A DNA stretch of 32,000 nt from Desulfotalea psychrophila LSv54 (GTDB lineage: Bacteria > Desulfobacterota > Desulfobulbia > Desulfobulbales > Desulfocapsaceae). The translations under genes were made by a program, and so were the position numbers. Location: the NCBI RefSeq assembly GCF_000025945.1, contig NC_006138.1:1620001-1652000 (forward strand), given 5' to 3'. The notes beneath the pieces are model-generated. The model was not told the DNA's origin. It saw nothing but the letters and a program-made list of their open reading frames with translations, and searched no databases. Numbering within the stretch: position 1 is the stretch's first letter; each line of letters begins with the position of its first letter. Shown piece by piece: positions 4,484 through 22,229 of the stretch.

Positions 4484-4672
4484 TTTTTTGGAAAGGAGAG
4501 GCTTTGGCTGGGTAAGGTGTGTGGGATAATTAGCTCACAGCTTCTCCAGTGAGAGTAGGATTTGTAGCAGCCTTGTTAGATATTGGTCTTATCTGTCTTT
4601 GGAGTATTGTTAATATGTTACTTCTTTTGCGGGATGGCTGTTAGGGTAATTGTTTGATTAGGGGAGGGGGCC

Positions 4673-4707: not shown

Positions 4708-4719
4708 CTTTATTAATTA

Positions 4720-5148: not shown

Positions 5149-5174
5149 TTGTCTCTCCTATGACATTGATTGAT

Positions 5175-5184
5175 GGGGGGGGGG
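5175..5184. repeat. homopolymeric G10 tract (C10 on the pilin-coding strand), 27-36 nt upstream of the pilA start codon
   Basis: tgatGGGGGGGGGGaattg read directly from the sequence. Confidence 0.9.
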
Positions 5185-5946: not shown

Positions 5947-6402
5947 CTATATATTATTTTTTATAATTGCAGCCAAAGCAGCACTCTGTGTTACCGTAGT
6001 TGTGTTATTCCATGTGATAGTAGTGGTGCCAATAGTCGGCGTAAGGGTGATTACCAGGTCATCTACACCGGTGCCTATGCCATCTTCTAATGTGAGGGTT
6101 ATTATGCCAGCAGCTACTGTACCCGTAAGCGCTTCTTTAGTTGGTGTAAAGGCAGGGATCTCGGTAACAGTGTCTGCGGTGGTGGTGTTGCAGGTAGTTA
6201 GTATACCACCAGCTTCCTGCGCACAAACGGCAACAGCCGTTTTCAAGCTGTCGACAGAAGTGAGTGCATTTCCGACTTTGGCTTTAATAGTATAGTTTTG
6301 ATACTGAGGAATAGCCACGGCTGCCAAAATTCCGATGATTGCCACAACGATCATCAGCTCGATAAGGGTGAAACCCTGTTGGTTCTTGAGTGCCTTTTTC
6401 AT
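5947..6402 (-). CDS. type IV pilin paralog, Thr-rich, without a C-terminal disulfide loop
   Basis: The first 38 aa are identical to the pilin at 4720-5148 ([38 protein letters not shown]). The C-terminal half is divergent and T-rich. RBS AGGAGA lies upstream. Confidence 0.9.
6295..6402. repeat. 108-nt near-identical 5' coding block shared with pilA at 5041-5148
   Basis: See 5041-5148. Confidence 0.85.
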
Positions 6403-6454
6403 TTTTTCTCCTTGTTATGATGCTAGAATGTTGGAACTCTGTTTCCCCTTAACT

Positions 6455-6470
6455 AGCAGTTTATATGCCA
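6455..6470 (-). promoter_or_regulatory. candidate sigma54 (-24/-12) promoter for the pilin gene at 5947-6402
   Basis: The minus strand reads TGGCATataaaCTGCT, close to the consensus TGGCAC-N5-TTGCW with correct GG-N10-GC spacing. The GC dinucleotide is 54 nt upstream of the ATG. Confidence 0.55.
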
Positions 6471-6827
6471 ATTTCCATTTGTCCCTAAAATTTGTTGTAT
6501 TCGCCTTTTTAATAGGGCTGTTCTCTCTGGTAAATGATCAAGGCCTGCGCCCTCCTGTCAGGGGCGGCGTAGTCTACCTCGTGCCAGTCCCTATCCTGCC
6601 CTGTACCTCCACCAGAAAAAAACATAATTCTTTGAGGTTTGGGTCTTATCTGTTCATGTGGATGGGGAGATGGGGCTGGGCCTCTGGGCAGGCAAGTGAG
6701 TCTTTGATTGTTAGGTTGTTAGGTGTTCAGGCATAACAGGAGCATGTTATAAGAAAATAGGGATGATAATAAGGGCTAAGGCCTTTTTAGACCCTTTCTG
6801 TTTTTATCATCGCCTGTTTCTGTCTGT

Positions 6828-6868
6828 GGTGACCTTTATTGTCAGCTGGGGTGACGTTTTTTGTCACC
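6828..6868. promoter_or_regulatory. two tandem dyads GGTGAC-N7-GTCA(G/C)C, candidate transcription-factor or enhancer-binding sites
   Basis: GGTGACctttattGTCAGC (6828-6846) and the perfect GGTGACgttttttGTCACC (6850-6868), with centres 22 bp apart, in the divergent region between the pilin gene and the plus-strand minor-pilin operon. Confidence 0.35.
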
Positions 6869-7054
6869 TCAGCTCTTGTCGAGGCACAGGAGTTCTTTTG
6901 TGAGCTTTTTTTCTGGTGAGCTGTGACTGTTATAGTGACATAATTGTGATTATATTATTGCGTATTGCGCTGATTAATTGTTATTAATGGCACTATTTTG
7001 TTTTGTCATCTTACAATATGGTGAATTTTATTGAACTGTGGAGGGGGAGAGAGA

Positions 7055-7441
7055 GTGCAAAACAGAAAGAGAGATGGCTTCACCCTTATTGAGGTGATGA
7101 TCGTGGTGGCAATTATTGGCATACTGGCGGCCATTGCCATTCCCAGTTATAGAAGCTTTATCACGAGGGCTCGTTGCCAAGAGGTGGTGGCCCCGGTCCA
7201 TGACGTTATGGTGAGATTGGTAGGAGGCTATGCCGAGGATAATTCTACCCCTAAAGAAGATTTTAAGGCATCTCATACCATCAATGGAGTTCTCCTTAAC
7301 TATCCCGCAAATGTTCAGATAAGTTTTAAATCTGACGCTGCAGGTGCTTTTGCCGTGCAGGGTAAGAGAACGAATCCTGCCTGCTCAGATGGTGACGGTA
7401 TCTATGTTTTGCTAGAAGGACAGACCCAAGGAGTATGGTAA
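7055..7441 (+). CDS. type IV pilin-like protein (PilE-like), first gene of the plus-strand minor-pilin operon
   Basis: VQNRKRDG|[24 protein letters not shown] prepilin N-terminus. GTG 7055 follows the RBS ggagggggagagaga; the track start TTG 7031 would give an unusually long leader. Confidence 0.8.
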
Positions 7442-7444
7442 GAG

Positions 7445-8005
7445 TTGATTATAACAGTGAAAAATAGTGGTGGGTTCACCTTGATTGAACTGGTTGCGGT
7501 AATGATTATTATCTCCGTTTTGGCCATGTTTGCCATTCCCAGCGTTATGGAGGCCCTACCCAATTATCGTCTGAAATCTGCCGTCAACGAGCTTCGGGCT
7601 AGCCTGCAACAGGCCCGAGGAGTGGCGGTGCGTGAAAATGGTTCGGTGGCTTTTTCCGTGGGGCCCATGGATCTTTCAGAAGACGGCATGGATTTTTCTT
7701 TTATAGAGAACGAGGGGCCTAAAAAGCATGGGGCTGATTTTGCTAACTATGGCTCGACGGGGTATGGCCTTGCTCAGGTGAAAAAGGATTGGGATGGTAA
7801 TATTGCGGTTCAGGTCTCTTTACCTCACACTATCACTTTCACCAGTAGGGGCACGGCTGATCCTGCCACAGTATATCTGGATAACGGTTTTGGCCAAGAG
7901 AAGAACAATCTCTGTTATGCGGTGGAGGTTCTGACAACGGGCTTTATCAGGGTGCATAAGTATGTTCCCTGTCCTGCGGCCGACAAAACCTGTTGGGCGA
8001 AATAG
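7445..8005 (+). CDS. GspH/FimT/FimU-family minor pilin
   Basis: KNSGG|FTLIELVAVMIIISVLA followed by PNYRLKSAVNELRASLQQAR, as is typical of GspH/FimT. The start could be TTG 7445 or GTG 7457. Confidence 0.75.
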   Translation: MIITVKNSGGFTLIELVAVMIIISVLAMFAIPSVMEALPNYRLKSAVNELRASLQQARGVAVRENGSVAFSVGPMDLSEDGMDFSFIENEGPKKHGADFANYGSTGYGLAQVKKDWDGNIAVQVSLPHTITFTSRGTADPATVYLDNGFGQEKNNLCYAVEVLTTGFIRVHKYVPCPAADKTCWAK

Positions 8006-8008
8006 TCT

Positions 8009-8698
8009 ATGCTAAGCAATAAAAGAGGATTGACCCTGGTCGAATTGATGGTGGTGCTGGTACTTTCCATGATTGTCACTGGCCTAATGTACAGCCTCTA
8101 CAGGGTACAGACAGTCTCTGCCGAGGTGCAGACCAATATTGCTGAAATGCAGCAGGCGCTTCGTACCTCCGTTGACAGCCTAAGCCGTGAACTGCGGATG
8201 GTTGGCTATGATCCAACTGCTCAAGGTGGCTTTGGTGTAAAGGCCGTTTCCGAGGTGAATGGCGTGTCACTAGGGACTGGAAATTACATAGATAAGGCTG
8301 CAATGGATAAGGCGAAGAGGACAGATACTCTTCGTTTTCTCACTTATAGCTACGCTGATAGCCTTGGCAATGACAGGATTGAGCTTTATGACAAAGATGA
8401 TGGAGTATTTAAACTACATCTCATCGATGCTGGTGCAGCCGTCATTGAAGAGGTGGAGTATTTAGAGTTGTACTACCGTCTTGCCGATGGAACTAAAACC
8501 CTGACACCTACGAATTTAGCTCATATCCGTGCTGTGGAGGTCTCCCTGCTTGTTCGCTCCTCTCGACAATCGTCAGACTATATCAATACTACTGAGTATA
8601 TAACGGCATCCGGTGAAGAATGGAAACCTTCTGGCGACGACCGCTATCGACGTAGATTTGTACGAAAAATAATAAAGTTGCGCAATATGGGCCTCTAG
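8009..8698 (+). CDS. pilW: PilW-like minor pilin
   Basis: NKRG|LTLVELMVVLVLS, then a long helix ending in LSRELRMVGYDP, the PilW-type signature. Confidence 0.7.
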   Translation: MLSNKRGLTLVELMVVLVLSMIVTGLMYSLYRVQTVSAEVQTNIAEMQQALRTSVDSLSRELRMVGYDPTAQGGFGVKAVSEVNGVSLGTGNYIDKAAMDKAKRTDTLRFLTYSYADSLGNDRIELYDKDDGVFKLHLIDAGAAVIEEVEYLELYYRLADGTKTLTPTNLAHIRAVEVSLLVRSSRQSSDYINTTEYITASGEEWKPSGDDRYRRRFVRKIIKLRNMGL

Positions 8699-8706
8699 GA
8701 GGGAAT

Positions 8707-9174
8707 ATGAGATTATTAAATGAGCAGTCTGGCTTTACCCTCATTGAGGTCCTGATGGCGATTCTGATACTCTCCGTTGGCCTTATCTCTTTGAACTTTA
8801 TGCAGGTGAGTTCCGTCAAGGGCAATGCCGATGCCATTGGCCTCTCTACCATGTCCTGGCTTGCCTCCAGTGAGATTGAAGGGCTGATGGATGAGGGCTA
8901 TACTGCCGTGGTTGCTTTGGATAAGGGAGGGGCGGGGGCCGGTGCTGCTGGTCTGGATGATGGTCCTTCTTTAGTCGATTCAGATGTCTCTGCAGCGACT
9001 GCGGATAGGACGGATACTAAAACTCATTCTGGTTACAGCATTTATACGAATGTTGCCGATAATTCCCCGGTCAATGGGGCGGTGGCCATTCGGGTGATTG
9101 TGGTTCGTGCCCGTGATAATAAGTTCGTAAAGTATGATTCCTTTATGACTGATTTTGTCAAAGGAGGGCAGTGA
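8707..9174 (+). CDS. pilV: PilV-like minor pilin
   Basis: NEQSG|FTLIEVLMAILILSVGLISL, the PilV-type N-terminus. Its TGA stop overlaps the next start (GTGA). Confidence 0.7.
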   Translation: MRLLNEQSGFTLIEVLMAILILSVGLISLNFMQVSSVKGNADAIGLSTMSWLASSEIEGLMDEGYTAVVALDKGGAGAGAAGLDDGPSLVDSDVSAATADRTDTKTHSGYSIYTNVADNSPVNGAVAIRVIVVRARDNKFVKYDSFMTDFVKGGQ

Positions 9175-9662
9175 AACCTTTAGCGAAAAAGAGAGAGGAA
9201 GGCTTTGTTTTGGTCCTTGGCCTGATCCTGATGTTGGTCCTTACCTTGGTCGGTACCCTGGCTACCAGAACGGCTGTTATGGAACTGCAAATTGCTGGAA
9301 ATGAACGTCAGGCAAGTCAGGAGTTCTACGTTGCAGACAGTGTTTGGCAGCTTGGTGGTCTGTGGTTAGGCAAGAGATCAACCCCCCCTGATTGGGTCAA
9401 TGTGTCTACTCCATTGAGTAATATTGTCAGAAATTATGGTGACGGTGGTGATGGTGTATCACACGAAGATTTTACTGATGCCAGTAAAGACGGTAGTTCT
9501 TTAGAGATTCCGTATTGGTATAGAATTAAAGATACTGGAAGTACTAAGGTCGCGGGATACGGTAAGGGATACAAGAGATTTCATTATGAGATAGATGCTG
9601 TAGCAGGTGGGCGAGCTCATGTTAGCACTCGAGTAAATAAGGTCTATAAGGTTGACTATTAA
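9171..9662 (+). CDS. pilX: PilX-like minor pilin (PilX_N-type N-terminus)
   Basis: EEGFVLVLGLILMLVLTLVGTLATRTAVMELQIAGNERQASQEFYVADS resembles the PilX N-terminal domain. Its position between pilV and pilY1 fits. Confidence 0.65.
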   Translation: MKPLAKKREEGFVLVLGLILMLVLTLVGTLATRTAVMELQIAGNERQASQEFYVADSVWQLGGLWLGKRSTPPDWVNVSTPLSNIVRNYGDGGDGVSHEDFTDASKDGSSLEIPYWYRIKDTGSTKVAGYGKGYKRFHYEIDAVAGGRAHVSTRVNKVYKVDY

Positions 9663-9684
9663 GTAATTGTTTTTAGCGGTGGAT

Positions 9685-11193
9685 ATGGAAAATAATACAG
9701 TTAGGCTTTTCCCGTGGATGATTATTTTGCTTTTAGTTGGAATGCTATTCCATGTTGATTCGGTGGTGCAGGCCGCCTGTGTGATTGATCCCACAGGAAC
9801 TTATATTGAGGCGGAAAATTATACGGGTGAAGGTGGGCATAGTGATGATCACGATGAAAATTTTTCCTTAAAGAGTGATGGTAGTGCCCATGGTGGCCTC
9901 GCCCTGGTTGCTGGTAGTGATGATTCAACTCGAACGCCACCACGGCGGGAAATAAAAGAGTATGAGGTGGAGATCTCAACTGCTGGTACCTACTACTTCT
10001 GGATGAGAGGGGAGGGGTACAGTGGCTCAAGAGATTCTATGTTTTATACCGTTGATGATTCATCGTGGAGGGCCTGGAATTTTGCTGGACACTATTATAG
10101 GTATGTATGGACAAGGTCTATGCAGGTTGGCTCCAACGGAATCTATCTCAGTGCTGGCAGCCATACAATTAAAATAGCAATGCGAGAACATTATACCCGT
10201 ATAGATGGTTTTTTCTTAAGTACGAATCGCTATACGTCCCCAAGTTTTGCCAACATTTTGGATCCGACCAGCTGTCAGGATAGCGGGGGCACACTTCCTC
10301 CTGCCGATGGCACCTGTGGTGATGTGCCCATTTATACGCAGAATCTCTTGAGTCCTGCCATCATGGTCCAGCTTGATCTTTCCGGGAGTATGGACAGTTC
10401 AATGTTCTCGGGTTCTAAGTTTTTGAGTTCTGATTTGGCGCCCATTGTCCAGGAGATTGTTGATTTAACAGGCTGGGTATCCGGCCATAATATTGCCTTT
10501 AGGGTGAGGGGAACCGGTGACCGACAGGCCTACTCTTATAGGGGCAGTTCAGTTGGTGCTCCCGTTCTTACCATTAAATATATCCCCATTGGTGGCGTCG
10601 ATGAGGTAACTTTTACGAAAAAGATATTAGCAGATGCAGACGATAATCAGGTCTATAATGGTTCATTTGTCAATAATTATTATGGCCTATATTTTGGTGC
10701 AAAGGGTCCCGTAGGTCTTCTCTTTAAAAATATTAACATCCCTTCCGGTGCAGAAATCACCAGTGCCGAGATCCTCTTTACGTACAGAGGTTCCGACGAT
10801 ATAAGTCGAGTTGCCACCCTCGATATTGAAGGCTTTAAAGAGCCAAATGTATCATCGATTACAGAGACGATGCTTGAATCTGATACTGGCCTTACCCTGG
10901 CAAATGCATCCCTGAATTATACCCGGCTTGATTATGCCGTTGCCGTTTTGGCAGAGGTCTTTAAGGATGACGCAATTGCCTGGGGCTTTGCAACCTGGGC
11001 AGGTGGTAATGGGAGCTCTTCTGATACTGGTAGTCCCGACTACTACAGCAAATATAAGGTGGGGGTAAAGGCACATTCAGAGGTGCATCAGGGACATTTA
11101 GAGACGGCATTGGCCAGTACAGATGCCTATGGATGGACTCCGCTCACTCCAAGCATGAATGCTGCTATGATTACTTTACAGCAAGGCGCTTAG
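9685..11193 (+). CDS. pilY1: PilY1-like tip adhesin, N-terminal fragment (signal peptide, carbohydrate-binding-like module, first half of the vWA domain); fragment 1 of 2, ends at a frameshift
   Basis: MENNTVRLFPWMIILLLVGMLFHVDSVVQA is a signal peptide. A module runs from IEAENY to REHYTRIDGFFLS. The vWA MIDAS loop is MVQLDLSGSM, and the ORF ends inside the vWA motif GWTPLTPSMNAA. Confidence 0.75.
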   Translation: MENNTVRLFPWMIILLLVGMLFHVDSVVQAACVIDPTGTYIEAENYTGEGGHSDDHDENFSLKSDGSAHGGLALVAGSDDSTRTPPRREIKEYEVEISTAGTYYFWMRGEGYSGSRDSMFYTVDDSSWRAWNFAGHYYRYVWTRSMQVGSNGIYLSAGSHTIKIAMREHYTRIDGFFLSTNRYTSPSFANILDPTSCQDSGGTLPPADGTCGDVPIYTQNLLSPAIMVQLDLSGSMDSSMFSGSKFLSSDLAPIVQEIVDLTGWVSGHNIAFRVRGTGDRQAYSYRGSSVGAPVLTIKYIPIGGVDEVTFTKKILADADDNQVYNGSFVNNYYGLYFGAKGPVGLLFKNINIPSGAEITSAEILFTYRGSDDISRVATLDIEGFKEPNVSSITETMLESDTGLTLANASLNYTRLDYAVAVLAEVFKDDAIAWGFATWAGGNGSSSDTGSPDYYSKYKVGVKAHSEVHQGHLETALASTDAYGWTPLTPSMNAAMITLQQGA

Positions 11194-13382
11194 ATGAGAC
11201 CTACAGTTTGAAATATGCTCAGGTGTCCTGTCAGGCGAAGGTTCTTGTTATTGTTACCGATGGCATAGGTAATACAGGTACTACGACTACTAATGCAGGG
11301 ACTGCTACTGATAGATTGATAAATGCAGGTGTTTCTGTTGTTGCCCTTGGCTTTGGTTTAGATAATGCGACGCAACTTGATAAAATAGCGGAAATAGCTC
11401 AACGCGCCGGGAAAATTTCAGATACAGATAAGCTCTATGCCCTCCATGATGATGCGGGCGGGAAGGGCGTACCATTTCTGGCCGATTCCCCCGATGAATT
11501 TTTAGCAGCGATGAAATCCATTATCAGCAGTGTCAAATTGCAGTTGTATAATGGTGTCTCTCCGGCCCCAACCACCTCGGTTAAAGATGAACAAATTTTA
11601 GTGACTGCCACATTTAACCCAGCAAAGTGGACGGGAGATGTTGTGGCCAATAAATTTGACGGAGAAACGGGGAAGCTGGGAGAGATATTGTGGAGGGCAA
11701 GTGATGTTTATGCCTCTGCGGGGAGCCCGGATTTCGCTGATTGCTTTGTTTATGAGAAGGCGACAACCAGTGTGGTGAATTATGGTACTACAACTCTGGA
11801 TAAAGATAATTATCTCTGCAAAAATTTGGGAGATATTATTAATTCAACACCCAAGATTGTAGGAGCTCCTCCCTATTATTATGATTTTGATGACTATGAA
11901 GATTTTAACCGCAATACATCCGTTACTGGCCGAGATACCCTTGTTTATGTGAATTCAAATGACGGAGCCCTGCACTCTTTTTTACTTGCTCCGGGAACGA
12001 GCCGTGCCAGTACAGATACAACGCCTCTGGGGAAAGAGCTATGGCGATTTTATCCAGATAGTGTAAGGGAAAAACTTAATACAGATATGTGTTCTGCTGC
12101 ATACTGTCATGAGTATATCAATGATGGCCCTCCCCGAGTTGGAGATATTTATAAGGCAGATTTGTCAGGCAGTAAATGGCGGACTGTGCTGGCGGCTGGT
12201 ATTGGCAGAGGTGGCGCTGGCTTCTATTCTTTAGATGTTACATATGGAAAAGGTCTCGGTGGAGGAGTAAATGATACCTCTTTCCTGTGGGAGTTTACCA
12301 GTGTCGATGATAGTGAACTGGGGTTGGCTACAGCTTTGCCTGAGATTGAGAGAGTTGCTGATGATGCAGTTGCTAACAAAGCTTCGTGGCTGACATTTTT
12401 TGGCTCCGGCCGAGCTGTTAAGGCAGATGAACAGGCCAGTAAGCAGGCGTATCTGTTTGCTGTTAATTCGTGGACAGGGGCTTCTGTGTGGGGCGGCGAT
12501 AATAATACGAATAAGATCAAAATTGGTACAGCAGACCCGGCTGATGATAGTCAGTTGCTTAAAAACGATATTCCCTCTTCTCCTTTGGTTGTTGATGTCG
12601 ATGATGATAACAAGGCTGACAGGGTATATTTGGGTAATTTATACGGTGAAATTTTTAGAATTGCAGATATTTCAGTTGGCGATTCTCCACGGGTAAGCCG
12701 CCTTTTTGAATCTGGTCATACAGATCGATTGTCACCTATTATTACAAAACCTGCCTTCGCCTTTGATTCTGATACAGGCAGCAGCCTGTGGGTGTATGCT
12801 GGTACTGGAAAGTACGAAGATCAAGCAGATAAGGTGTCTTCAGACCAACAGTATATGCTTGGTCTTCTGGATGAGGGCGCTTCTCTGAGAAAGATGAGTG
12901 AAATAACAACCTGTGATGCGGGATTTGTTACAGCTGCAGATAGTAGTGCTGAGTATAGAACAGTAGGAAATTGTGTAACTGGTGCAGGTGGTGCAGGTTC
13001 ATGGGCCTTGAAGCTTATGAATTCTGAGAGCAGTGCAAGTGAGCGTTCCTTGTCACAGCCTTTGGTGGTCGGCGGTGTTGTCTTTTTTACTACCTTTGTC
13101 CCTGATGCAGATGTCTGTGGGGGAAGCGGTGATGCATATTTATTTGCCCTTGATTGGAAGACAGGAGCTGCCCCAACGGAGCATATATTTGTAGATTTTC
13201 CACAAACTGTTGGCAGCAGTGCAGTCGCTGGTTTGTATCTTGGTAAAGGTGTTCCTTTTCAGCCTGTGCTGCATGGGGATGTGCTTTTTGCAGGAACTAC
13301 AGAGCAACCACCCACTCCTTATAAGGTTAATTTGAAAAAGTCAAAAATAGAGCTGAAGTCTTGGAGACAGGACTTTAATTAG
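11133..13382 (+). CDS. pilY1: PilY1-like tip adhesin, C-terminal fragment (rest of vWA plus the PilY1/PilC beta-propeller); fragment 2 of 2
   Basis: The vWA continues (DYFTARR, KVLVIVTDGIGNTG). PilY1 hallmarks follow: LGDIINSTPKIVGAPP, LVYVNSNDGALHSF, and the Ca-binding-type loop DVDDDNKAD (12594-12620). Confidence 0.8.
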   Translation: MDSAHSKHECCYDYFTARRLDETYSLKYAQVSCQAKVLVIVTDGIGNTGTTTTNAGTATDRLINAGVSVVALGFGLDNATQLDKIAEIAQRAGKISDTDKLYALHDDAGGKGVPFLADSPDEFLAAMKSIISSVKLQLYNGVSPAPTTSVKDEQILVTATFNPAKWTGDVVANKFDGETGKLGEILWRASDVYASAGSPDFADCFVYEKATTSVVNYGTTTLDKDNYLCKNLGDIINSTPKIVGAPPYYYDFDDYEDFNRNTSVTGRDTLVYVNSNDGALHSFLLAPGTSRASTDTTPLGKELWRFYPDSVREKLNTDMCSAAYCHEYINDGPPRVGDIYKADLSGSKWRTVLAAGIGRGGAGFYSLDVTYGKGLGGGVNDTSFLWEFTSVDDSELGLATALPEIERVADDAVANKASWLTFFGSGRAVKADEQASKQAYLFAVNSWTGASVWGGDNNTNKIKIGTADPADDSQLLKNDIPSSPLVVDVDDDNKADRVYLGNLYGEIFRIADISVGDSPRVSRLFESGHTDRLSPIITKPAFAFDSDTGSSLWVYAGTGKYEDQADKVSSDQQYMLGLLDEGASLRKMSEITTCDAGFVTAADSSAEYRTVGNCVTGAGGAGSWALKLMNSESSASERSLSQPLVVGGVVFFTTFVPDADVCGGSGDAYLFALDWKTGAAPTEHIFVDFPQTVGSSAVAGLYLGKGVPFQPVLHGDVLFAGTTEQPPTPYKVNLKKSKIELKSWRQDFN

Positions 13383-13427
13383 AATAAAAACTATTGGTTA
13401 ACCAGTTGTCTACAGGGTAGGTGTAGT

Positions 13428-13889
13428 ATGAAAATGCTAAGGGTATTGTTTTTAGGGTTTGTTTGTTATTCTTTTACCTTACAAACTGGATTTGCTCAAA
13501 ATACAAAGCAGGAGATGGTCGATCTTCTTGTCGATAGCTCCGGAGGAGAACAAAGGGAAATGGTTGGCTTGGTATCTGAGTATACCCCCGGAGGTTCGCT
13601 TATATTGGTGGCAGATCAGCTTCTCAGTGTGCCCTCTGTAATATTTCGTAAAAATTTGGCAGGACAGTATTTAGAGGAGCCAATAAAAAATCTTGCTGTT
13701 GGCCAAGGTGTGCAGGCTATTGTCAGTAAAAAAGTTACTGAAGGTGTTCAGGAAACTGTTGTGCTGGCAATAGTTGAAGATATTGCTCAATCGGAAGGGC
13801 CTGCAGAACCTGCTGATGTTCTTGATAACAAAAAGGGGAAGCGTGTAGAAAGGCTCAGGTTGGAAAATGGTGTTTGGCTGAATGAGTAG
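13428..13889 (+). CDS. hypothetical secreted protein, last gene of the plus-strand operon
   Basis: 153-aa ORF with a signal peptide (MKMLRVLFLGFVCYSFTLQTGFAQ). I recognise no family. Confidence 0.55.
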   Translation: MKMLRVLFLGFVCYSFTLQTGFAQNTKQEMVDLLVDSSGGEQREMVGLVSEYTPGGSLILVADQLLSVPSVIFRKNLAGQYLEEPIKNLAVGQGVQAIVSKKVTEGVQETVVLAIVEDIAQSEGPAEPADVLDNKKGKRVERLRLENGVWLNE

Positions 13890-13890
13890 A

Positions 13891-13919
13891 GGAGATGGAA
13901 AGAATTTCTCCTATTTTTT
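13891..13919 (+). terminator. weak candidate intrinsic terminator
   Basis: GGAGA-11 nt-TCTCC followed by tatttttta, directly after the stop at 13889. Confidence 0.3.
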
Positions 13920-14064
13920 AGCTCCCCGTACAGTACGCTTGTCTGGTTTTTTTTTGTGCTTTTGTTGAGGCAATAGGGTCGCGTGATTTGCCAAGGGGAA
14001 AGCCATGTATCCCTATCGCCTGAGATGGATAATTATCTGAATCCCTGCTGGCATGGCCGTTAGG

Positions 14065-14523
14065 CTATTTACAGTCTACCCCCCGGCTGGGGGTGCTGCT
14101 CTTGCAGCCTGTACCGGTGAGGGACCACTCTGTGTAGCCCTTGCTGGTGGTCGGGGTATAGATGAAGTTTAGTTGAGTGCCGGCTGTGTCGGTGACGGTG
14201 GTGGTGATTGAGATAACGCCCTTAACTGTTGCGAGTTTATCCACATACGAGACCGTTGCCCCATCATCCCCTGTGGCAATATCTGCCGGAATAAGGGGGA
14301 CTGTGGCATTGTCGCAGTTGGTTGGCGCTCCCCTGTCCTGGATACACTGTTCAACGGCAACCTGCCAGGATGTGATATTGGATAAAACCCCGCCCAACTT
14401 GCTTCTTGCCACATAGTTAGTGTACTGAGGGACGGCAACGGCCGCAAGGATACCGACGATCGCTATAACGATCATAAGCTCAATAAGGGTAAATCCCCTC
14501 TCTGCTTTAAGAGAACTTTGCAT
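14065..14523 (-). CDS. type IVa pilin (third major-pilin-like gene), last gene of the minus-strand minor-pilin operon
   Basis: [10 protein letters not shown]|[24 protein letters not shown], with a C-terminal Cys pair [14 protein letters not shown]. Only 37 nt separate it from the upstream PilX-like gene. Confidence 0.9.
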
Positions 14524-14560
14524 GGACTTCTCCTGAGTGAAATTTTTTGTCCTTTAGGTA

Positions 14561-15094
14561 TTATTCGACCCAACCGTCCGGAATGAATTCTGTTTTATAA
14601 ATTATATCAATAATGGCCTGCTCGGGAGCCTTGGTTGAGAGTGATTGTTCATTTTCTGCGTAGACAGTAATTGCCTGCAGGCTGGTGACTTTTTCTAGCT
14701 GGGTGCCTGCCTGGGGGCCGGTATCAGGAATTTGGAACGCTGAAAGATTATTTGCGCCTCTATAGTAGGCATAAAGGCTTGTGCAATCGGCCTTTCCCAG
14801 GGCGGTGCAGAGGCCTAGGGGGATGTCTATTTTGGATGCCGTCGGGGTGCTGGGGCTTGTTGAACAGGTCATTCCCCCATTGCAGGTGAGGCTGTCGTCG
14901 CCCATTTTGGCCATCAAAAAATTGCCGGTTCCCCGGGCTATTTGCAGCTCTTGGTTATAGGAGTTCATCTGGTGGGTGCTTACCGTGGAACTTTTTATTA
15001 TGTGCCACATCACCGCCACCAGCATAATCCCGATTAGCCCCAGGGAAAGGGCTGTCACAAGTACCGTGCCTCTTTGGTTATTGACTGTTTTCAT
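14561..15094 (-). CDS. pilX: PilX-like minor pilin
   Basis: MKTVNNQRGTVLVTALSLGLIGIMLVAVMWHII is a PilX_N-like hydrophobic N-terminus. ATG 15094 sits 1 nt after the upstream stop; the track start 15112 is less likely. Confidence 0.6.
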   Translation of the reverse strand: MKTVNNQRGTVLVTALSLGLIGIMLVAVMWHIIKSSTVSTHQMNSYNQELQIARGTGNFLMAKMGDDSLTCNGGMTCSTSPSTPTASKIDIPLGLCTALGKADCTSLYAYYRGANNLSAFQIPDTGPQAGTQLEKVTSLQAITVYAENEQSLSTKAPEQAIIDIIYKTEFIPDGWVE

Positions 15095-15095
15095 A

Positions 15096-16082
15096 TTAAA
15101 ACCCTTTGGCAAAGGCCGTTATCTTTAAGACCTTCCACTGGTATCTCTTGAACTCCTCTATCTCGTCGCCAGTGGTAAAAAGTGTCTGGAACTGGACGGC
15201 CTCTCCATCAATGCTAAAGCTTATCTTGCCGTCGCCTAGACTGGGGCTTGGCCCACCATAGGTGTAGGTCTCGTCTTTTTTGCCAATTTGGGCCAGGATA
15301 TAGACGGTGCTGGTCTTGAGCTTATTGCGAACTGTGAGGGTGGAGCCTGTCTCGGCAGCCGGGATATCAGTAGTCTTGCTGGGATCAAGGTTTGTTTCGT
15401 CCGCCTCAACTGTTCCGTCGTCGTCTTTATCCCAGTCAACGCGGATGGCGAAATCGGCAATGCAGGTGAAGAGAGGAGTATCGTTTCGCAGTATGTTTCT
15501 GGTATTTGCCGCACAGGAGTCTATGGGTTGGCTGGCGCTGAGCCTATACTCTGTCTGGGTGCAGGGCTGGTTGCTACTGCTGCCGCAGCTGGTGGCCCCG
15601 TTTGCATAGGGATAGACGATATATATGTTATTGCCACTGCAGCCTGTGGTGGTAATATCCTCGTTGTAGATAGAGTCTTTGTCGATAAGGATGGAGTTTT
15701 GAGAATCATTGTCTCGCTGTTCAATATCAAGGGAGAAGCTACCACTCGAACAGGAACCTGTTGCCCAACCCATGGTTGCGCTATTGGTGTTACTGAGGGT
15801 GGAGTGAATCAAAAGGCTACTGCCATCCCAGAAAACAGGGGGAATGTCATTTATGGTGGCTGTTGAGTCTATGTAGGTGGCAATGCCTGTGCCTGCATGT
15901 TCCAAATCCAGACGTAAGAGCTCATTGGCAGAGAGATTGTCTCCTCTTGTCTGGCTGGCGGCCGTGCTACTCTTGACATTATGCGATATCCGTTGAAAAC
16001 TCTTGGTGGTGAAGAGGAGGAGGAGGAGCATGATGGTCATGGCCACGAGGAACTCAATCAGGGTAAAGCCGTCTCTTTTCAT
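15096..16082 (-). CDS. pilW: PilW-like minor pilin
   Basis: MKRDG|FTLIEFLVAMTIMLL, then LSANELLRLDLEHAGTG. ATGA start/stop overlap with the upstream gene. Confidence 0.7.
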   Translation of the reverse strand: MKRDGFTLIEFLVAMTIMLLLLLFTTKSFQRISHNVKSSTAASQTRGDNLSANELLRLDLEHAGTGIATYIDSTATINDIPPVFWDGSSLLIHSTLSNTNSATMGWATGSCSSGSFSLDIEQRDNDSQNSILIDKDSIYNEDITTTGCSGNNIYIVYPYANGATSCGSSSNQPCTQTEYRLSASQPIDSCAANTRNILRNDTPLFTCIADFAIRVDWDKDDDGTVEADETNLDPSKTTDIPAAETGSTLTVRNKLKTSTVYILAQIGKKDETYTYGGPSPSLGDGKISFSIDGEAVQFQTLFTTGDEIEEFKRYQWKVLKITAFAKGF

Positions 16083-16492
16083 ATGTCAGCCCGTATGGTT
16101 GTGGTTGTGTAGGACTCCTCGGGGCCATCATCTAGCACCTTCCATTTAACGGTAATGTTTACCAGTTTACCATAGGTGCCAATACCTGCCGGCTCCGATA
16201 CCGCCTGGTCTACGTTGAATGTTTTTTGACTGTCGCCAAAGAAACGGGCCAGGCTGGTGTTGGTTGTGCCGAGATTAAGGGCGGCAAAGGCCGTGTTGCT
16301 GATATTGGCAACCTGCAGTTGGGCAATCTGCTTGGCCTCGTTTTGATACTGTTGGCGTGCAGAATGTTGAAAGGTACGAATAAGCCCTGTAAGTGTGCCA
16401 AGCGACATTATGAGGAGGAGGAGAAGGGCCACCATTACCTCAACGAGGGTAAAACCCCTCTCTCTATTCTGCTGTGCAGGATGTTCCATCAT
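16079..16492 (-). CDS. pilV: PilV-like minor pilin
   Basis: QQNRERG|FTLVEVMVALLLLLIMSLGTL; small at 137 aa. Confidence 0.7.
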   Translation of the reverse strand: MMEHPAQQNRERGFTLVEVMVALLLLLIMSLGTLTGLIRTFQHSARQQYQNEAKQIAQLQVANISNTAFAALNLGTTNTSLARFFGDSQKTFNVDQAVSEPAGIGTYGKLVNITVKWKVLDDGPEESYTTTTIRADI

Positions 16493-16985
16493 ACTTTCCC
16501 TGACGAACGCGAATGTTATTTATTGTTATGCAGTCACCAGTGGCTGCGGGGTTGGACAGTGCTGTTTCCCTATTGTCTGCCAGCAGGCGGATATGACCAT
16601 TAGCGAGGTTTCCTCGACTGGTAATTGAAAAGCTGTCGCTACCGTAGTTGCTGGCGTAGATATAGTTAAGTACCACCTCTTTTTGGGTATCCGTGCCAGT
16701 GCCTGCATCATCCCACCGGGAGACAATGGTTGTATGCTTGTCGCCGCTAGTCCCCTCTTTTAGAAGAGAGACTGTCACCTCCTGTTTGTGGGTAAAGGCC
16801 CAAACCCGGCCGGCCTTAATGAATCTCGTTATTTTGCTAAGATCGTTTTCTATATTCTTGGCCTGGGTCATCTTTTGGTAACTGGCAAGGGAGAAGGTTG
16901 CCATTATGCCCACCAGGACAATGACTATCATCAGTTCCAGCAGGGTAAAACCCCTCTCCCTGTTTCTGCTTAGCGTTCTTGCCAT
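16464..16985 (-). CDS. GspH/FimT/FimU-family minor pilin
   Basis: SRNRERG|FTLLELMIVIVLVGIMATFSL, then NDLSKITRFIKAGRVWA as in GspH/FimT. Confidence 0.7.
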   Translation of the reverse strand: MARTLSRNRERGFTLLELMIVIVLVGIMATFSLASYQKMTQAKNIENDLSKITRFIKAGRVWAFTHKQEVTVSLLKEGTSGDKHTTIVSRWDDAGTGTDTQKEVVLNYIYASNYGSDSFSITSRGNLANGHIRLLADNRETALSNPAATGDCITINNIRVRQGKYDGTSCTAE

Positions 16986-19900
16986 AAGAGGGGCTCTCCT
17001 TTGGGTGTAATCCCATTACCAGGTAAGATAAAGGGGGAATTTTCTGGTGGCGTACCCATTATCCAAGAAGTTGCCCTATTGCCATCCTGGTCGAAACTAT
17101 CCTGATTGAGTAGGTTGAGGTCGCCGGCATTCAGGGGCAGAATTATGTGGAAGATTTCCGCTGGAAGATTATAGGCCTGACCTTCTGTGTTCTCCTCGCA
17201 ACCGGTGCTGATGCTATCTCCTGTCATGCAGTTCAGGGCCCACATTCTGGTCCGTCCACCAAAGGAGCATATATCATCTGTCGGTTGGGTGGTGGTGAAA
17301 AAGGTGATATTTAAATTGCTTACTGTGGGGTCGGTGAGAACACGTTCCTTCATGTAGATGGTGTCAGGGTCGTCTGCATCGGCGCCATATTCTGCCAGAC
17401 CCTTATCCAGCCTCCATGCATAGTTGCTGTTGCGTTTGGCATCGGAGACATCACAGGTCCCACTGGTGTTGTGGATTGAGTTGATGCCGACACTTTTTAG
17501 GCAATCCTCACCCTTAGCTAGATTATCCCTACACTCTTGGAGGTTAACGCCATAGAGGTTATTGGTCTTGCCATCTGGGTCGTCCTTCTTGAAAAACCAT
17601 TTGCCCGTACCGAAATAGACAAAGGGGTCATCAAAGCAGGTGCCGAAGGCAACTGCGCTGGTAACCGGTTGGCTGGAGTTGAGGATGTTCTTTTCCGTCC
17701 ATTTTTTTACTGCCTGATCGGTGGGGGCAATAGCCCGGAGCTGGCCTTGTGCACCATTTTTTTCATTGACCCCATAAAGGATAAGGTCGGTGTAGCCATC
17801 ACTGTCGATATCCATGCCGTTGTTGTAAAGCCTGCCGCCGAAAGAATTTTTTTGCACGTTTTTGGGTGCTATTGTATTAACCGCGGTTTTTTTGAAATCA
17901 TCATCAAGGGTGAGGATGAAGACCTTTAAATTCTGCTGTACTTGGCCCTGGTAGTCTGTGGGGCCGGAGACAAAGACTACGTATTTTTGTTTGAGGCTGT
18001 TGCCAGCTTTTTGTTTTCTGCTGATAACAGCGGGGCCGGAGTAGGCAAAACCAAGATCTGGATCGGTGAATTCCCAGAGGAATTTGGGGGCATAGGGATC
18101 GGTGATATTAAGAGCAAAGTATGAGGACAGGCCTTTGCCGGCAGTTTCAGGCGAGATAGCCTTATCACCTGTAGAGCCCGTTGCCCCGCCAAAACGCATT
18201 CCCATGATAAGAATTGTCTTGTCCCCGTGCTGGACGAAGTAGGGTGCGCCGTCAATCGCATAGAGATGCTGATAGTCCGGGTCGGCAAGGTATTTCAGAT
18301 AGGGCATGCTGTTTTTGGGGATGAAAGACCAGACCTCTTTACCTACGAGGTTGTTGCCGTCGTCGCCTTTTTTATTAATAAGCGTAGCCACTTGATCACC
18401 GCTAAGGCCCCCCCTCTCTATCTTGCCCCCGTTAAAGACATGGAGCATACCGTCGTTGGCCCCGGTGAAGATCAGGGAGTTGTCCCCGTAGTTAAGAACC
18501 TTGGGGGTTGAATGGATAATATCGCCCAGCTTCCATCTGTTTTTTCCACCGGTGGTGTCAGCGTCTGTTGCCCTGGATCTGCACTCTCCTCCGCCATTGG
18601 TAGTGAAATCATCTCCTGCCCCACGGGTATAGGAGATAGTGTTTACCGCCCTCTCTGCAGCTGTTCCACCAAGGCAGGGATCAAAGCCGCTGCCTCCAAA
18701 AAGAGAGTCGAAGCTGTTGACATTATCTGTGGTGAACTCTTGTATACTGTCCGTTTCATCTACTCCCCATATGACCCGTCTCGCTGTGTCAAGACCTGGG
18801 GCTGGATCAGCGATGAGGTCAGGGGCAGACTCAACCTCTCGATCGTTTAACATTTGTCCGCCATCCCATATCTTGGCAATATCTCCGATTTTGGCATGAT
18901 CGCCTAAGCGGGCTCCCTTACTTCCATCGGCCTCTACCGCATAGTAGGGGATGGAGAGTCCCCCTGTATTGGGATTTGGCACAATTTCAATAATATGGTC
19001 TGTAAATTTATTGCGAAAAAACCTGTCCACATTGTCTTCCTGCATATAGGCAATATCGTTTTGGCTGGAGTACCAGTAGGTATGGAGTATACCTGTCCAG
19101 TTTACTTGGTACTTCTTGTTATCTTGGAACTCTTTAGTGGGGAAAAAGAGGCTCTGGTTGAGGGTACCCCCTGTAGATTTATTTCCTGAGAGAATAGATA
19201 CGCCTGTGCCCGATGCGGTCTTGTCGAGGATGCTGTTGATGGTTCCCTTCAGAACATCTTTGAGCTGTTGCCCATCCTCTGCTAGAGAATAGGTCCCTTG
19301 GCCATGGGCGGCGGTATCCTGGAGGAGTCTCTCTTCGGCGGAGTTTGCAGAAATTCCGAAGCCCACGGTATAGGTGGTAAGATACTGCTCTCCCTTAAGA
19401 TCATCGCGGAGATCCCGACTGTTAGAGAGTGCTTCAGTCAGGGCCTGCCCCTTTCTGTTAAGGTTGGCCCAGAGGGCCAGATCATCGAGGTTATTTTTGT
19501 AACTATTATCGGTGTTCCTCGTATTAATGCCCTCGCCTGTTACGATGTTCCCATCGTAGTCGTTTGTGTAGTTGCTTCCGTCACTATATGCTGAAGCCGC
19601 CTGGGAGGCGCTTGATTCGTTAAATTCCTCGTCATTAAAAGGTGGCACGTAGCTATCGGTATATGAACCCCCATCGGTGAAGATAATAACAGATGAGTTA
19701 GCGCAACGTATCATGGCGTCCAGTTCTTTGAAATAGTAGGGGTCCCAGGCTTTTTCTGTTAAAAAGCTTGCCACGTCTCCTGCGCTGTTGACGCTGGAGT
19801 TGTAATAGGGGCCTTTTTGCTGGAAATAACGAATGACCTCATAGAAATTTTCAGCAAGGGGGGTTGTTCCCCAGATCAGTGGATAGTGTTCGACTGCATC

Positions 19901-21730
19901 CACCAGAATTTCTATGTCTGAATCTATGGGGGTATCGATTGTGCGAAAGTTGGTGTCTGAACTTTTTTTGACAAAGGGGTTGGTCGGGATGCGCAGGCGC
20001 ATGGTTCCACCGTGCCACCATGAATTGTATATATTGTTGGTGGTGAGATTGTACTTGTAGTAACTGAGGCCCTGACGGACATCATCCTTTATATCGTGAA
20101 GGAGTCCTTTGGGTACCTGATCTGTCAATAGGGCAATATTATAGTTTGTTCTTGGGGAGAGGGCGAGGTAGCCGACAGCCTCTGTTGTATGGCGAACCTC
20201 CGTATCATTTGAACCCTCTTCCTGCAGGGAGATTTGCACTGAATCCTGCTCTAAATTACTAAAGGCTACGGCCACTGTATCGGGCCCGTTAAAGGTTAAG
20301 GCTGTGGCTAGAAAGGCACTGGTGGCTTTGCTCGTGGCAAAAGTTATAGAGGCGCTGTTGGAAAGACTCTGGGTGCCCACTTCTAGAACTGTATCCGTGA
20401 AGTTATATTGTCCTTTCTCCAGGGCCACATAGTCCACTGTTTCGGTTGCATGAGTTCGGCGGCTCGCCTTCCATTCTAATTCTTCCTCCTGCAAAATGAT
20501 ATCAAAGTCGGCTGTTGATATATCGTTAAGGCGGGTGGTGACGGTTTGATGGTCTGTGTCTGAGGTGATTGCGGTGATTACTACGGGAGTCGAAGAAAAA
20601 TCACCTGAAGCCAGAGACACATTTTTCCACGCGGAGCGACTGTTTACATAGCTTGTGTTGATTTTTGTGCTTCCTGCCATAATTTTTCCCCCGCCAAGCA
20701 GGGTGTGCGTCCCTGCCTCGATGACCAGGTAGGAGGCATTTCGTTGAGGCAGGGTTCCGTTGAGATACTCCCACTGCTCTGCCCGTATTTTAAAAGAAGA
20801 ATTTTTGATCTCCTTTATTCTGATTACCGCAGGGCGATTAGCGGTTGAATCGAGGGGGCCGGCAACAATAACGGGATTGCTATAATTTTTGCTCAGGGTG
20901 ATTTTTTTCCATGTCTCATCAAGGTCCTCAATGGAGCTAAATTCACCAATGATATCACCAATGTTATCGGTGATGGTCTTGGAGTATTTTGTGCTTATTC
21001 CCGTTGCCGTCATCTTTGCATAGGGGTCGTAGGTAGTTTTACTTGAACCGCCATAGGCAGGGCTGTTGACTCTTATGGGGCTTCCCGCAGAAAGTGGGCT
21101 GTAGTCAATTGAATTTGCTGGGGCATTTCGGCAAATTTCTCTGTCAATTGGCTCATTGTTTCCCACAATTTTCCAGTATAGGGTTGAATTGCCTGTTATG
21201 TTTAGATATGGGTAGCTGCTTCTGCTCTCTGTCTTGCCTCCAACGAGAACCTTTCTGGCTGCATCCATACGTCTGGTGACGATCCAGTTGAGAAAGTTCC
21301 CGCTCCAGCAGTTTTTGTCTGTTTGAGAGGAACATGTGCTTGGTACAAAGGCTCCCGTGGCTGATAGGGCAACGGCTACATCGTAGGGAGTGCCATTAAA
21401 TCCATCTGGGTTTATGCTAACCTTGGGGTCGTAATTGTAATTTGCCGTACTTTCAAAAATACCGTAATACTCTTTTGTACTGTCATAGTCTGACGGGAAT
21501 GATTTGCAGTTCCAGCCACTCTGGCTATACATTGGTTGCTTCATGCTCCCTGAATTATCGAGCATGAATAGGATGTTAGGCTTGACTTTGTTGGCTATGG
21601 ATGGTGGGTATGCTGTATAGGCGGCTCCCTCGCATGTACCTGCACTTGCCACTAAGGGCCCTGTGAGAATAAGGAGAGGTAGGAGGAGAAAAAGCGGGAG
21701 ATTTATTTTGTTATTCGGGATCTGTTTCAT
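16970..21730 (-). CDS. pilY1: very large PilY1-like tip adhesin with an N-terminal vWA domain carrying a ~450-aa insert
   Basis: Signal peptide from ATG 21730 (MKQIPNNKINLPLFLLLPLLILTGPLVASA). vWA elements are the MIDAS loop LFMLDNSGSM, TTPLAENFYEVIRYF and VIIFTDGGS. PilY1 hallmarks are LGDIIHSTPKVL and FTGANDGMLHVFNG. The Ca-type loop is DIDSDGYTD (17786-17812). The track start 21892 adds 54 residues that precede the signal peptide and are probably not coding. Confidence 0.85.
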   Translation of the reverse strand: MKQIPNNKINLPLFLLLPLLILTGPLVASAGTCEGAAYTAYPPSIANKVKPNILFMLDNSGSMKQPMYSQSGWNCKSFPSDYDSTKEYYGIFESTANYNYDPKVSINPDGFNGTPYDVAVALSATGAFVPSTCSSQTDKNCWSGNFLNWIVTRRMDAARKVLVGGKTESRSSYPYLNITGNSTLYWKIVGNNEPIDREICRNAPANSIDYSPLSAGSPIRVNSPAYGGSSKTTYDPYAKMTATGISTKYSKTITDNIGDIIGEFSSIEDLDETWKKITLSKNYSNPVIVAGPLDSTANRPAVIRIKEIKNSSFKIRAEQWEYLNGTLPQRNASYLVIEAGTHTLLGGGKIMAGSTKINTSYVNSRSAWKNVSLASGDFSSTPVVITAITSDTDHQTVTTRLNDISTADFDIILQEEELEWKASRRTHATETVDYVALEKGQYNFTDTVLEVGTQSLSNSASITFATSKATSAFLATALTFNGPDTVAVAFSNLEQDSVQISLQEEGSNDTEVRHTTEAVGYLALSPRTNYNIALLTDQVPKGLLHDIKDDVRQGLSYYKYNLTTNNIYNSWWHGGTMRLRIPTNPFVKKSSDTNFRTIDTPIDSDIEILVDAVEHYPLIWGTTPLAENFYEVIRYFQQKGPYYNSSVNSAGDVASFLTEKAWDPYYFKELDAMIRCANSSVIIFTDGGSYTDSYVPPFNDEEFNESSASQAASAYSDGSNYTNDYDGNIVTGEGINTRNTDNSYKNNLDDLALWANLNRKGQALTEALSNSRDLRDDLKGEQYLTTYTVGFGISANSAEERLLQDTAAHGQGTYSLAEDGQQLKDVLKGTINSILDKTASGTGVSILSGNKSTGGTLNQSLFFPTKEFQDNKKYQVNWTGILHTYWYSSQNDIAYMQEDNVDRFFRNKFTDHIIEIVPNPNTGGLSIPYYAVEADGSKGARLGDHAKIGDIAKIWDGGQMLNDREVESAPDLIADPAPGLDTARRVIWGVDETDSIQEFTTDNVNSFDSLFGGSGFDPCLGGTAAERAVNTISYTRGAGDDFTTNGGGECRSRATDADTTGGKNRWKLGDIIHSTPKVLNYGDNSLIFTGANDGMLHVFNGGKIERGGLSGDQVATLINKKGDDGNNLVGKEVWSFIPKNSMPYLKYLADPDYQHLYAIDGAPYFVQHGDKTILIMGMRFGGATGSTGDKAISPETAGKGLSSYFALNITDPYAPKFLWEFTDPDLGFAYSGPAVISRKQKAGNSLKQKYVVFVSGPTDYQGQVQQNLKVFILTLDDDFKKTAVNTIAPKNVQKNSFGGRLYNNGMDIDSDGYTDLILYGVNEKNGAQGQLRAIAPTDQAVKKWTEKNILNSSQPVTSAVAFGTCFDDPFVYFGTGKWFFKKDDPDGKTNNLYGVNLQECRDNLAKGEDCLKSVGINSIHNTSGTCDVSDAKRNSNYAWRLDKGLAEYGADADDPDTIYMKERVLTDPTVSNLNITFFTTTQPTDDICSFGGRTRMWALNCMTGDSISTGCEENTEGQAYNLPAEIFHIILPLNAGDLNLLNQDSFDQDGNRATSWIMGTPPENSPFILPGNGITPKGEPLLWQER

Positions 21731-22037: not shown

Positions 22038-22229
22038 CTATTTTGTCTCGAAACCCTGCTCTTCAATAAGTCGGCAGGCATCTTCCCGCTTGATATCACC
22101 TGTAATTCTTGCCTCGCCTGCCTGCAGATCCACCTCTACCTCTGCTGGCCCCTTAAGTCCTGCGAGGGCCTCTTTGACACTTGCCACACAGTGGGCACAG
22201 CTCATGCCTTCTATTTTTATTGTTATCAT
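22038..22229 (-). CDS. copZ: heavy-metal-associated (HMA) copper chaperone
   Basis: 63 aa with the GMSCAHC metal-binding motif in a ferredoxin-like HMA layout. Divergent from copA. Confidence 0.9.
   Translation of the reverse strand: MITIKIEGMSCAHCVASVKEALAGLKGPAEVEVDLQAGEARITGDIKREDACRLIEEQGFETK

Follow-up and report, generated by a model that had tools for sequence, protein, structure and literature searches.

Two convergent minor-pilin/PilY1 operons of different families in Desulfotalea psychrophila LSv54, one with a frameshifted pilY1

Does Desulfotalea psychrophila LSv54 have the genes for pili with two different tips? The question arises from a 32,000-nucleotide stretch of its chromosome (the window), in which two convergent operons lie tail to tail, each with one pilin-like gene and with genes for a PilY1-family protein and four minor pilins of the prepilin type. 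A first-pass annotation of the window had suggested two alternative tip complexes, and all open reading frames (ORFs) in its list were found at the coordinates and lengths that it gave, except for the plus-strand PilY1 as a single ORF. The 175-bp gap between the operons (13890-14064) was likewise borne out, and the ORF map shows overlapping, operon-like gene spacing in both.

Gene content of the two operons

The plus-strand operon starts with a pilin-like gene of 128 aa from GTG 7055 (7055-7441; N_methyl 40.7 bits), whose ORF opens at TTG 7031 (7031-7441) and whose match to PilA1 and PilA2 is confined to the N-terminal helix. It is followed by a FimT/FimU (GspH-fold) minor pilin (7445-8005, 186 aa; N_methyl and Pfam GspH 36.2 bits, cut-off 21), PilW (8009-8698, 229 aa; N_methyl and Pfam PilW 35.3 bits, cut-off 26), a PilV-like minor pilin (8707-9174, 155 aa; N_methyl, with TIGR02523 PilV at 38.4 bits, below the cut-off of 52.2) and PilX (9171-9662, 163 aa; Pfam PilX_N 54.5 bits, cut-off 25.5), which has the N-terminus G/FVLVL and no Glu5. 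The place of the PilV-like gene behind PilW is kept throughout the family. After pilY1, in the pilY2 position, is a gene for a small secreted protein (13428-13889, 153 aa) with no Pfam or NCBIfam match. This protein is weakly conserved 3' of plus-type PilY1 (E 1e-8 and 8e-5 against its counterparts at loci L008 and L006), and it shares with these counterparts a C-terminal E[ND]GVW[KL]N. In all, the matches to GspH, PilW, PilX_N and T4P_PilY1 (48 bits, cut-off 28.1) in the plus set are above the curated Pfam cut-offs.

The minus-strand operon has pilY1 as its first gene (16970-21730), followed by genes for a FimT/FimU (GspH)-like minor pilin (16464-16985, 173 aa; N_methyl, with TIGR01708 GspH at 46.7 bits, below the cut-off of 80), a PilV-like minor pilin (16079-16492, 137 aa; N_methyl, with TIGR02523 at 26.4 bits, below cut-off), a PilW-like minor pilin (15096-16082, 328 aa), a PilX-like protein (14561-15094, 177 aa) and, last and in the PilE position, a pilin (14065-14523, 152 aa). 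Direct HMM matches in this set were to N_methyl only, plus Pfam Pilin for the last gene (22.9 bits, cut-off 22, in addition to N_methyl), which is PpdD-like (E 1.4e-23). The PilW-like protein, whose own direct match is to N_methyl only, has positional orthologues at loci L013 and L029 (33% and 23% identical) that match Pfam PilW above cut-off (31 and 36.5 bits). The 177-aa protein had no direct HMM match; its hydrophobic N-terminal segment (G/TVLVT) lacks Glu5, and it belongs to a conserved positional family (n=12 sequences), one member of which matches PilX_N weakly (8e-4). When this family was compared with the plus PilX family by hhalign, the probability was 49%. The protein can thus be called PilX-like only by its position, its missing Glu5 and the weak PilX_N match of one orthologue.

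Both operons appear to be T4aP minor-pilin/PilY1 modules rather than T2SS pseudopilins, an assignment supported by the profile-HMM check, which found neither a GspK nor a GspG signature, and by the PilY1 in each operon. N_methyl was above cut-off for four proteins of the plus set and four of the minus set, while both proteins at the PilX position are without Glu5; the curated cut-offs were not reached by either PilV or by the FimT and PilX of the minus set. In favour of one set being instead T2SS pseudopilins (GspH-K) are weak, sub-cut-off N-terminal matches to the GspH, GspI, GspJ and GspG models, all on the common prepilin helix. We consider this reading very improbable, given the PilY1 homologue in each operon, the PilW and PilX_N matches of plus-set proteins and of minus-set orthologues, and the lack of a GspK-domain match or of any T2SS gene within the window.

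The HMM scans found four pilin-like genes in the window, one more than the "up to three" first counted. The window ORFs scanned included no genes of the T4aP machine (PilBCMNOPQ), in agreement with the earlier statement that the window has no assembly genes. An Rfam search of the window gave no match. The σ54 promoter pattern occurred 13 times, with 17 expected, and thus showed no enrichment; only one match, 5' of pilA2, was well placed. σ70 promoter-like sites were somewhat commoner than in shuffled sequence (34 vs 21.9, sd 4.2), and none lies where it would mark the promoter of an operon. Terminator-like sites were at the shuffle level (18 vs 16.1). The convergent gap has no called terminator; a hairpin followed by a T-run was seen at 13891-13919 by eye only.

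The frameshift in the plus-strand pilY1

The minus-strand PilY1 is an intact protein of 1586 aa with a signal peptide, a VWA domain (MIDAS DNSGSM) split by H-type-lectin-like β-domains, and a C-terminal propeller with the Ca-loop DIDSDGYTD. It is of the type precomputed as PF28373 PilY1_homolog_dom. A PDB search with the single sequence gave nothing relevant, and the family profile was required to match it to P. aeruginosa PilY1 (PDB 3HX6; 7e-21).

The plus-strand PilY1 had been described as one gene at 9685-13382 for about 1230 aa. We found instead two ORFs in different frames, 9685-11193 and 11133-13382, and the public record also annotates two proteins. The N-terminal fragment (502 aa; ORF map, AlphaFold pLDDT 75.8) has the signal peptide, a CBM6/35-like β-sandwich and the first half of a VWA domain (MIDAS DLSGSM) with an inserted β-sandwich, and ends at an out-of-frame TAG (11191-11193). 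The C-terminal fragment, a 749-aa ORF with homology from 11166, carries the T4P_PilY1 match, the second half of the VWA (VWA 21.4 bits) and the PilY1 β-propeller with the Ca-loop DVDDDNKAD; it matches PDB 3HX6 with an E of 3.8e-13 and itself lacks a signal peptide. Neither the plus nor the minus PilY1 has lost its MIDAS or DxDxDxxxD motif. An uninterrupted, exportable PilY1 frame is present in the minus set and absent in the plus set, where it is split near 11166.

The frame switch lies within 11158-11170: homology follows the first frame until ...PSMNAA and the other frame from YDYF.... Because intact homologues of 1200-1400 aa cross the junction gap-free, one base is missing in the plus pilY1. 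The sequence of 11158-11170 is aatgctgctatgattac, with no homopolymer, slippery heptamer (X XXY YYZ) or repeat tract. Downstream of the break the protein stays 42-51% identical to homologues, and this is the one lesion in 3.7 kb. Elsewhere in the same 32 kb, a Leu position of aroB is taken by an in-frame TGA.

Neisseria is known to have phase-variable pilC genes. Programmed frameshifting by -1, the shift needed to pass from the first frame into the second, might yield a single protein from the split pilY1, or the gene might be phase-variable by slipped-strand events. The site has neither the heptamer nor a repeat tract and the homologues are plain continuous ORFs, so that both mechanisms seem to us highly unlikely, and they were rejected as candidates for want of a slippery or repeat sequence.

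It is quite possible, if short of probable, that the frameshift is genuine, with the plus module a recently inactivated remnant and a single tip complex made from the minus module. The two frames with the TAG at 11191-11193, the VWA cut in two and the 749-aa fragment without a signal peptide are all consistent with inactivation, and the genome is a finished one in whose record the split has been kept. However, the gene has a single lesion, its conservation is unchanged beyond that lesion, and all five genes upstream of it are intact. In addition, a genuine TGA in aroB would be surprising in an organism that lives free, so that this second lesion points rather to errors in base calling.

Alternatively, the frameshift may be a sequencing or assembly error, a reading to which we give a real chance that falls somewhat below even. 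Both modules would then be intact and used alternatively or jointly, as in Myxococcus xanthus. The single missing base, the gap-free junction against homologues, the lack of other decay and the second suspicious lesion in aroB fit such an error. On the other hand, the site is not a homopolymer, the commonest setting of errors of this kind, and exact-protein look-ups with the window proteins returned no independent contig of the locus for comparison.

Thus, of the proposal of two alternative tip complexes, the two gene sets stand, while the plus PilY1 is split within its VWA and its propeller part is without a signal peptide. The proposal holds only if the plus pilY1 frameshift is a sequencing error; unless it is, the minus module alone supplies a complete PilY1 in this strain. 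The first-pass annotation had named decay of one set as an observation that would speak against two tips, and this may apply to the plus set. That both pilY1 and the nearby aroB are disrupted in the reference sequence bears on any functional inference from this genome.

Kinship, gene order and synteny

The two operons had been called paralogous, strongly diverged and not the product of a recent duplication. They are paralogous at the family level and no closer: the plus and minus PilY1 propellers are 24% identical (E 1e-14), the alignment of the minor pilins is confined to the N-terminal helix, and the two FimT proteins are 19% identical over 145 aa (E 6e-4). The strong divergence is thus confirmed, and a recent duplication is ruled out by the lack of likeness between counterparts past the N-terminal helix. 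The modules belong to two anciently diverged families.

The gene order had been called permuted. The difference is not a local rearrangement, as each order is conserved within its own family: Y1-FimT-V-W-X, as in the minus operon, is also found in Desulfocapsa, Desulfopila, Aquificales and Deferribacter, and FimT-W-V-X-Y1, as in the plus operon, in about ten loci. The neighbourhoods are also shared. Just 5' of the minus PilY1 is a copZ-like HMA gene (22038-22229, minus strand, 63 aa), which was read from the sequence and served as a synteny anchor; the same HMA gene also stands ahead of PilY1 in D. sulfexigens and at locus L116. The minus-type operon adjoins copZ/copA/sat/aroB in D. sulfexigens too, and the plus-type operon adjoins copA/sat/aroB/tatCB in PDWI01000852, a metagenomic relative.

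Both operon types are also paired in two uncultured relatives, L115 (JGI 3300048627) and L117 (ENA ERZ25039483), but they are divergent there, around pilSR-like genes, and the same convergent pairing was absent from the 88 + 26 related loci searched. Within this lineage, two distinct module families are repeatedly found next to each other, the one of canonical order and the other headed by PilY1.

Predicted tips and known systems

Different adhesin modules had been suggested for the two PilY1 proteins, and the structure predictions agree. In a Foldseek search, the N-terminal part of the plus PilY1 resembled CBM6/CBM35 domains (2CDO, 2CDP, 2W1W; E 2e-7 to 3e-6, TM 0.65-0.75 on the target), a region with no Pfam match. 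For the minus PilY1, the H-lectin assignment is borderline: H_lectin (PF09458) scored 22.2 bits, short of its cut-off of 24, many homologues carry a precomputed PF09458, and the model (pLDDT 81.3) matched Helix pomatia agglutinin with a Foldseek probability of 0.98-0.99 and a TM of 0.55 at an E of only 0.06. A CBM6/35-like N-terminus in one PilY1 and tandem H-type-lectin domains inserted within the VWA of the other raise the idea, tentative and on the doubtful side, that both are glycan-recognising tip adhesins, so that one pilus machine in this cold-sediment sulfate reducer might bear two exchangeable, sugar-specific tips. Among the studied PilY1 proteins covered by a 2026 survey, the recognised N-terminal domains were only vWFA and DUF4114 (PMC13190605). 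The predicted lectin-type modules suggest possible binding targets of such pili in sediment.

We propose that the two operons probably encode two separate T4aP priming/tip modules from the two families, with different predicted sugar-binding PilY1 modules. Each would comprise a pilin-like gene, a PilY1 adhesin and four minor pilins, which are FimU/GspH-like, PilV-like, PilW-like and PilX-like. On the pattern of P. aeruginosa and M. xanthus, pilus assembly on a shared machine would be nucleated by these minor pilins. They would remain at the tip and hold the C-terminal propeller of PilY1, whose variable N-terminal region would point outward. The organism would in this way be equipped for pili with two different tips. 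The functional model for the minor-pilin/PilY1 tip is that of Treuner-Lange et al. 2020 (PMC7541494).

Alternative tip complexes are not a new idea; they have been proposed and studied already in M. xanthus, where a single machine is proposed to serve three minor-pilin/PilY1 clusters (PMC7541494), and genomes with more than one PilY1 have been called common (PMC13190605). The locus adds a Desulfobulbales example to this well-known pattern of several sets per genome. Like that of D. psychrophila, the M. xanthus genome has more than one complete FimU-PilV-PilW-PilX-PilY1 set, namely cluster_1, cluster_2 and cluster_3 (PMC7541494; Xue et al. 2022, PMC9109919), with PilY1 C-terminal propellers conserved and N-termini differing, and some of these sets are silent under laboratory conditions (PMC7541494). 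Unlike those of M. xanthus, the D. psychrophila sets are two, adjacent and convergent, one with pilY1 first and one with pilY1 frameshifted; their predicted N-terminal modules are CBM6/35-like and H-lectin-like, whereas those of M. xanthus are DUF4114 or plain vWFA.

The minus set agrees with fimU-pilVWXY1Y2E of P. aeruginosa in its FimU-V-W-X order and in the PilE-like pilin that comes next, and both PilY1 proteins have the VWA and the propeller with its DxDxDxxxD Ca-loop, the propeller being homologous to 3HX6. In contrast to P. aeruginosa, pilY1 leads the minus set, the plus set has W before V, predicted lectin-like insertions lie within the VWA, and the small downstream protein has no detectable PilY2 similarity. 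Desulfocapsa sulfexigens (UWK_02281 locus) and Desulfopila aestuarii, both with PF28373 PilY1_homolog_dom, have orthologues of the minus operon in the same gene order, with PilY1 37-40% identical over the full length, and D. sulfexigens also shares the copZ/copA/sat/aroB neighbourhood; their loci, unlike that of D. psychrophila, are without a convergent second operon. L115 and L117 resemble the D. psychrophila locus in having a FimT-W-V-X-Y1 operon beside a PilY1-first operon at a single locus, and differ from it in the divergent orientation, the pilS/pilR-like genes in between and a second PilY1 that is of another type again.

Identity of the two operons

The first-pass annotation described two convergent, paralogous minor-pilin/PilY1 operons, and our ORF list reproduced all of its gene starts, ends and lengths and the 175-bp gap between the operons, with the exception of the plus-strand PilY1: instead of a single gene at 9685-13382, there are two ORFs in different frames (9685-11193 and 11133-13382). 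The plus set was above the Pfam cut-offs for GspH (36.2 bits), PilW (35.3), PilX_N (54.5) and T4P_PilY1 (48), and its PilV scored under the NCBIfam cut-off. Direct profile matches of the minus set were limited to N_methyl, except that the last gene (14523) also matched Pilin. The minus-strand 1586-aa protein (21730-16970) shares 24% identity with the plus propeller (E 1e-14), its family profile matches P. aeruginosa PilY1 (PDB 3HX6, 7e-21), and Pfam PF28373 ('PilY1_homolog_dom') is present in its homologues. Both PilY1 proteins retain the MIDAS motif and the DxDxDxxxD loop. Positional orthologues of the 328-aa protein (16082) in an Aquificales MAG and a Desulfohalobiaceae MAG scored above the PilW cut-off, and the 177-aa protein (15094) is a member of a positionally conserved family that lacks Glu5, like PilX and GspK; one orthologue matched PilX_N weakly, and comparing the family profile with that of the plus PilX gave a probability of 49%. 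The alternative that one set encodes T2SS pseudopilins, which would have undercut the earlier reading, was rejected because profile searches found no GspK or GspG signature and no T2SS gene in the window.

Downstream of the plus PilY1 is a small secreted protein (13428-13889) with no family assignment. It is conserved 3' of plus-type PilY1 in two related loci (L006, 13793-14257; L008, 8392-8895), all copies having the C-terminal motif E[ND]GVW[KL]N; the protein sits where pilY2 would be and could have an accessory role.

The break in the plus-strand pilY1

The first plus-strand pilY1 ORF terminates at a TAG. Homology to intact relatives of 1200-1400 aa follows frame one until ...TPLTPSMNAA and the other frame from YDYFTARR.... 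With base 11166 read twice, the product is a 1232-aa protein whose alignment to these relatives is gap-free at the junction, so one base is missing. Neither a homopolymer nor a slippery heptamer was found at the site (aatgctgctatgattac). The public record likewise splits the gene into two proteins (502/508 and 724/749 aa). The break sits within the VWA domain: fragment one holds the MIDAS motif DLSGSM, and fragment two, which has no signal peptide, comprises the remaining VWA domain and the propeller. A genuine frameshift would leave the plus module unable to supply a full-length PilY1.

In the same window, aroB (3-dehydroquinate synthase, 26526-27605) is one continuous frame apart from an in-frame TGA at 27108-27110, where D. 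sulfexigens has Leu (VIKYGVIWD*TFF vs VIKYGVIRDLEF), and is also recorded as two proteins. This TGA points either to pseudogenization of a biosynthetic gene or to a miscalled base, and it affects how much trust can be placed in the pilY1 frameshift. Because of it, we rate base-calling errors and real lesions about equally as explanations of both disruptions.

Neighboring pilins and putative regulatory elements

A gene for a PglL/Wzy_C-type O-oligosaccharyltransferase (2774-4483) lies beside two tandem PilA-type pilin genes (4720-5148 and 5947-6402), in agreement with a 2013 survey that listed a D. psychrophila PglL homologue adjoining a pilin (PMC3643930). The tandem pilin genes have a 130-nt 5' segment in common (5021-5150 and 6275-6404, 90% identical). 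Together, this arrangement suggests that the major pilins are glycosylated and possibly interchangeable. Pilin 4720-5148 is preceded, 27-36 nt before its ATG, by a G10 tract at 5175-5184 (C10 in the coding direction), which may allow slipped-strand phase variation from within the promoter or 5' UTR. About 50 nt upstream of pilin 5947-6402 is a σ54-like -24/-12 element (TGGCATATAAACTGCT, 6455-6470, minus strand), which fits the C-terminus of an NtrC/PilR-type activator encoded at 4-423; the pattern overall was not enriched across the window. The region 1800-2774 (~1 kb) has no convincing ORF and contains a 28-nt direct repeat (1856-1883 and 2545-2572, 86% identical). The GC content of the window, 0.43-0.54, is consistent with that of the D. 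psychrophila LSv54 chromosome (0.468; PMC2731167).

Two module types and their predicted tips

Similarity between the minor-pilin counterparts of the two sets is confined to the N-terminal helix. This rules out duplication within the genome and bears out the earlier view that this is not a recent duplication. The order Y1-FimT-V-W-X is found in Desulfocapsa, Desulfopila, Ca. Desulfobulbus rimicarensis, Aquificales, Deferribacter and Desulfurobacteriaceae, and the order FimT-W-V-X-Y1 followed by the small protein in Desulfobacterales-type loci; the gene order of each operon is a trait of its own family. The minus operon is lineage-typical, and in D. sulfexigens it adjoins copZ, Cu-ATPase, sat and aroB exactly as in the window. 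In the metagenomic relative PDWI01000852, a plus-type operon occupies the site adjoining Cu-ATPase, sat, aroB and tatCB. The same convergent pairing was seen in none of the 114 related loci searched. Pairing of the two module types nevertheless recurs, since two uncultured relatives (L115, JGI 3300048627, 1-17411; L117, ENA ERZ25039483, 1-22127) have a FimT-W-V-X-Y1 operon and a PilY1-first operon, divergent around pilS/pilR-like genes for a histidine kinase and a σ54 response regulator. One second-operon PilY1 of these pairs is 2396 aa long.

In the model of the plus PilY1 (residues 31-494, pLDDT 75.8), an N-terminal β-sandwich matches CBM6 and CBM35 (E 2e-7 to 3e-6, TM 0.65-0.75 on target), and a second is predicted to be inserted into the VWA domain. 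In that of the minus PilY1 (residues 31-860, pLDDT 81.3), the VWA domain is interrupted by β-domains resembling H-type lectins (Helix pomatia agglutinin, probability 0.98-0.99 and TM 0.55, but E 0.06). This resemblance agrees with an H_lectin score of 22.2 bits, just under the cut-off of 24, and with PF09458 in many homologues. Sugar binding by these modules is inferred.

In the model for P. aeruginosa and M. xanthus, minor pilins and PilY1 first prime pilus assembly and afterwards form a cap, the outermost part of which is the variable N-terminus of PilY1 (PMC7541494). By analogy, this organism would be equipped for two pilus tips with different predicted lectin modules. The earlier proposal of two alternative tips is supported as to the two modules and their differing predicted adhesin parts, but holds only if the frameshift is a sequencing error. 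M. xanthus has three minor-pilin/PilY1 clusters (PMC7541494), and more than one PilY1 per genome was common in a 2026 survey (PMC13190605); genomes with several sets are already well documented, as is the concept of alternative tips. Two features are modestly new: the predicted lectin-type modules of PilY1, and the fact that Desulfobulbales-like genomes repeatedly pair a module in canonical order with one that begins with PilY1.
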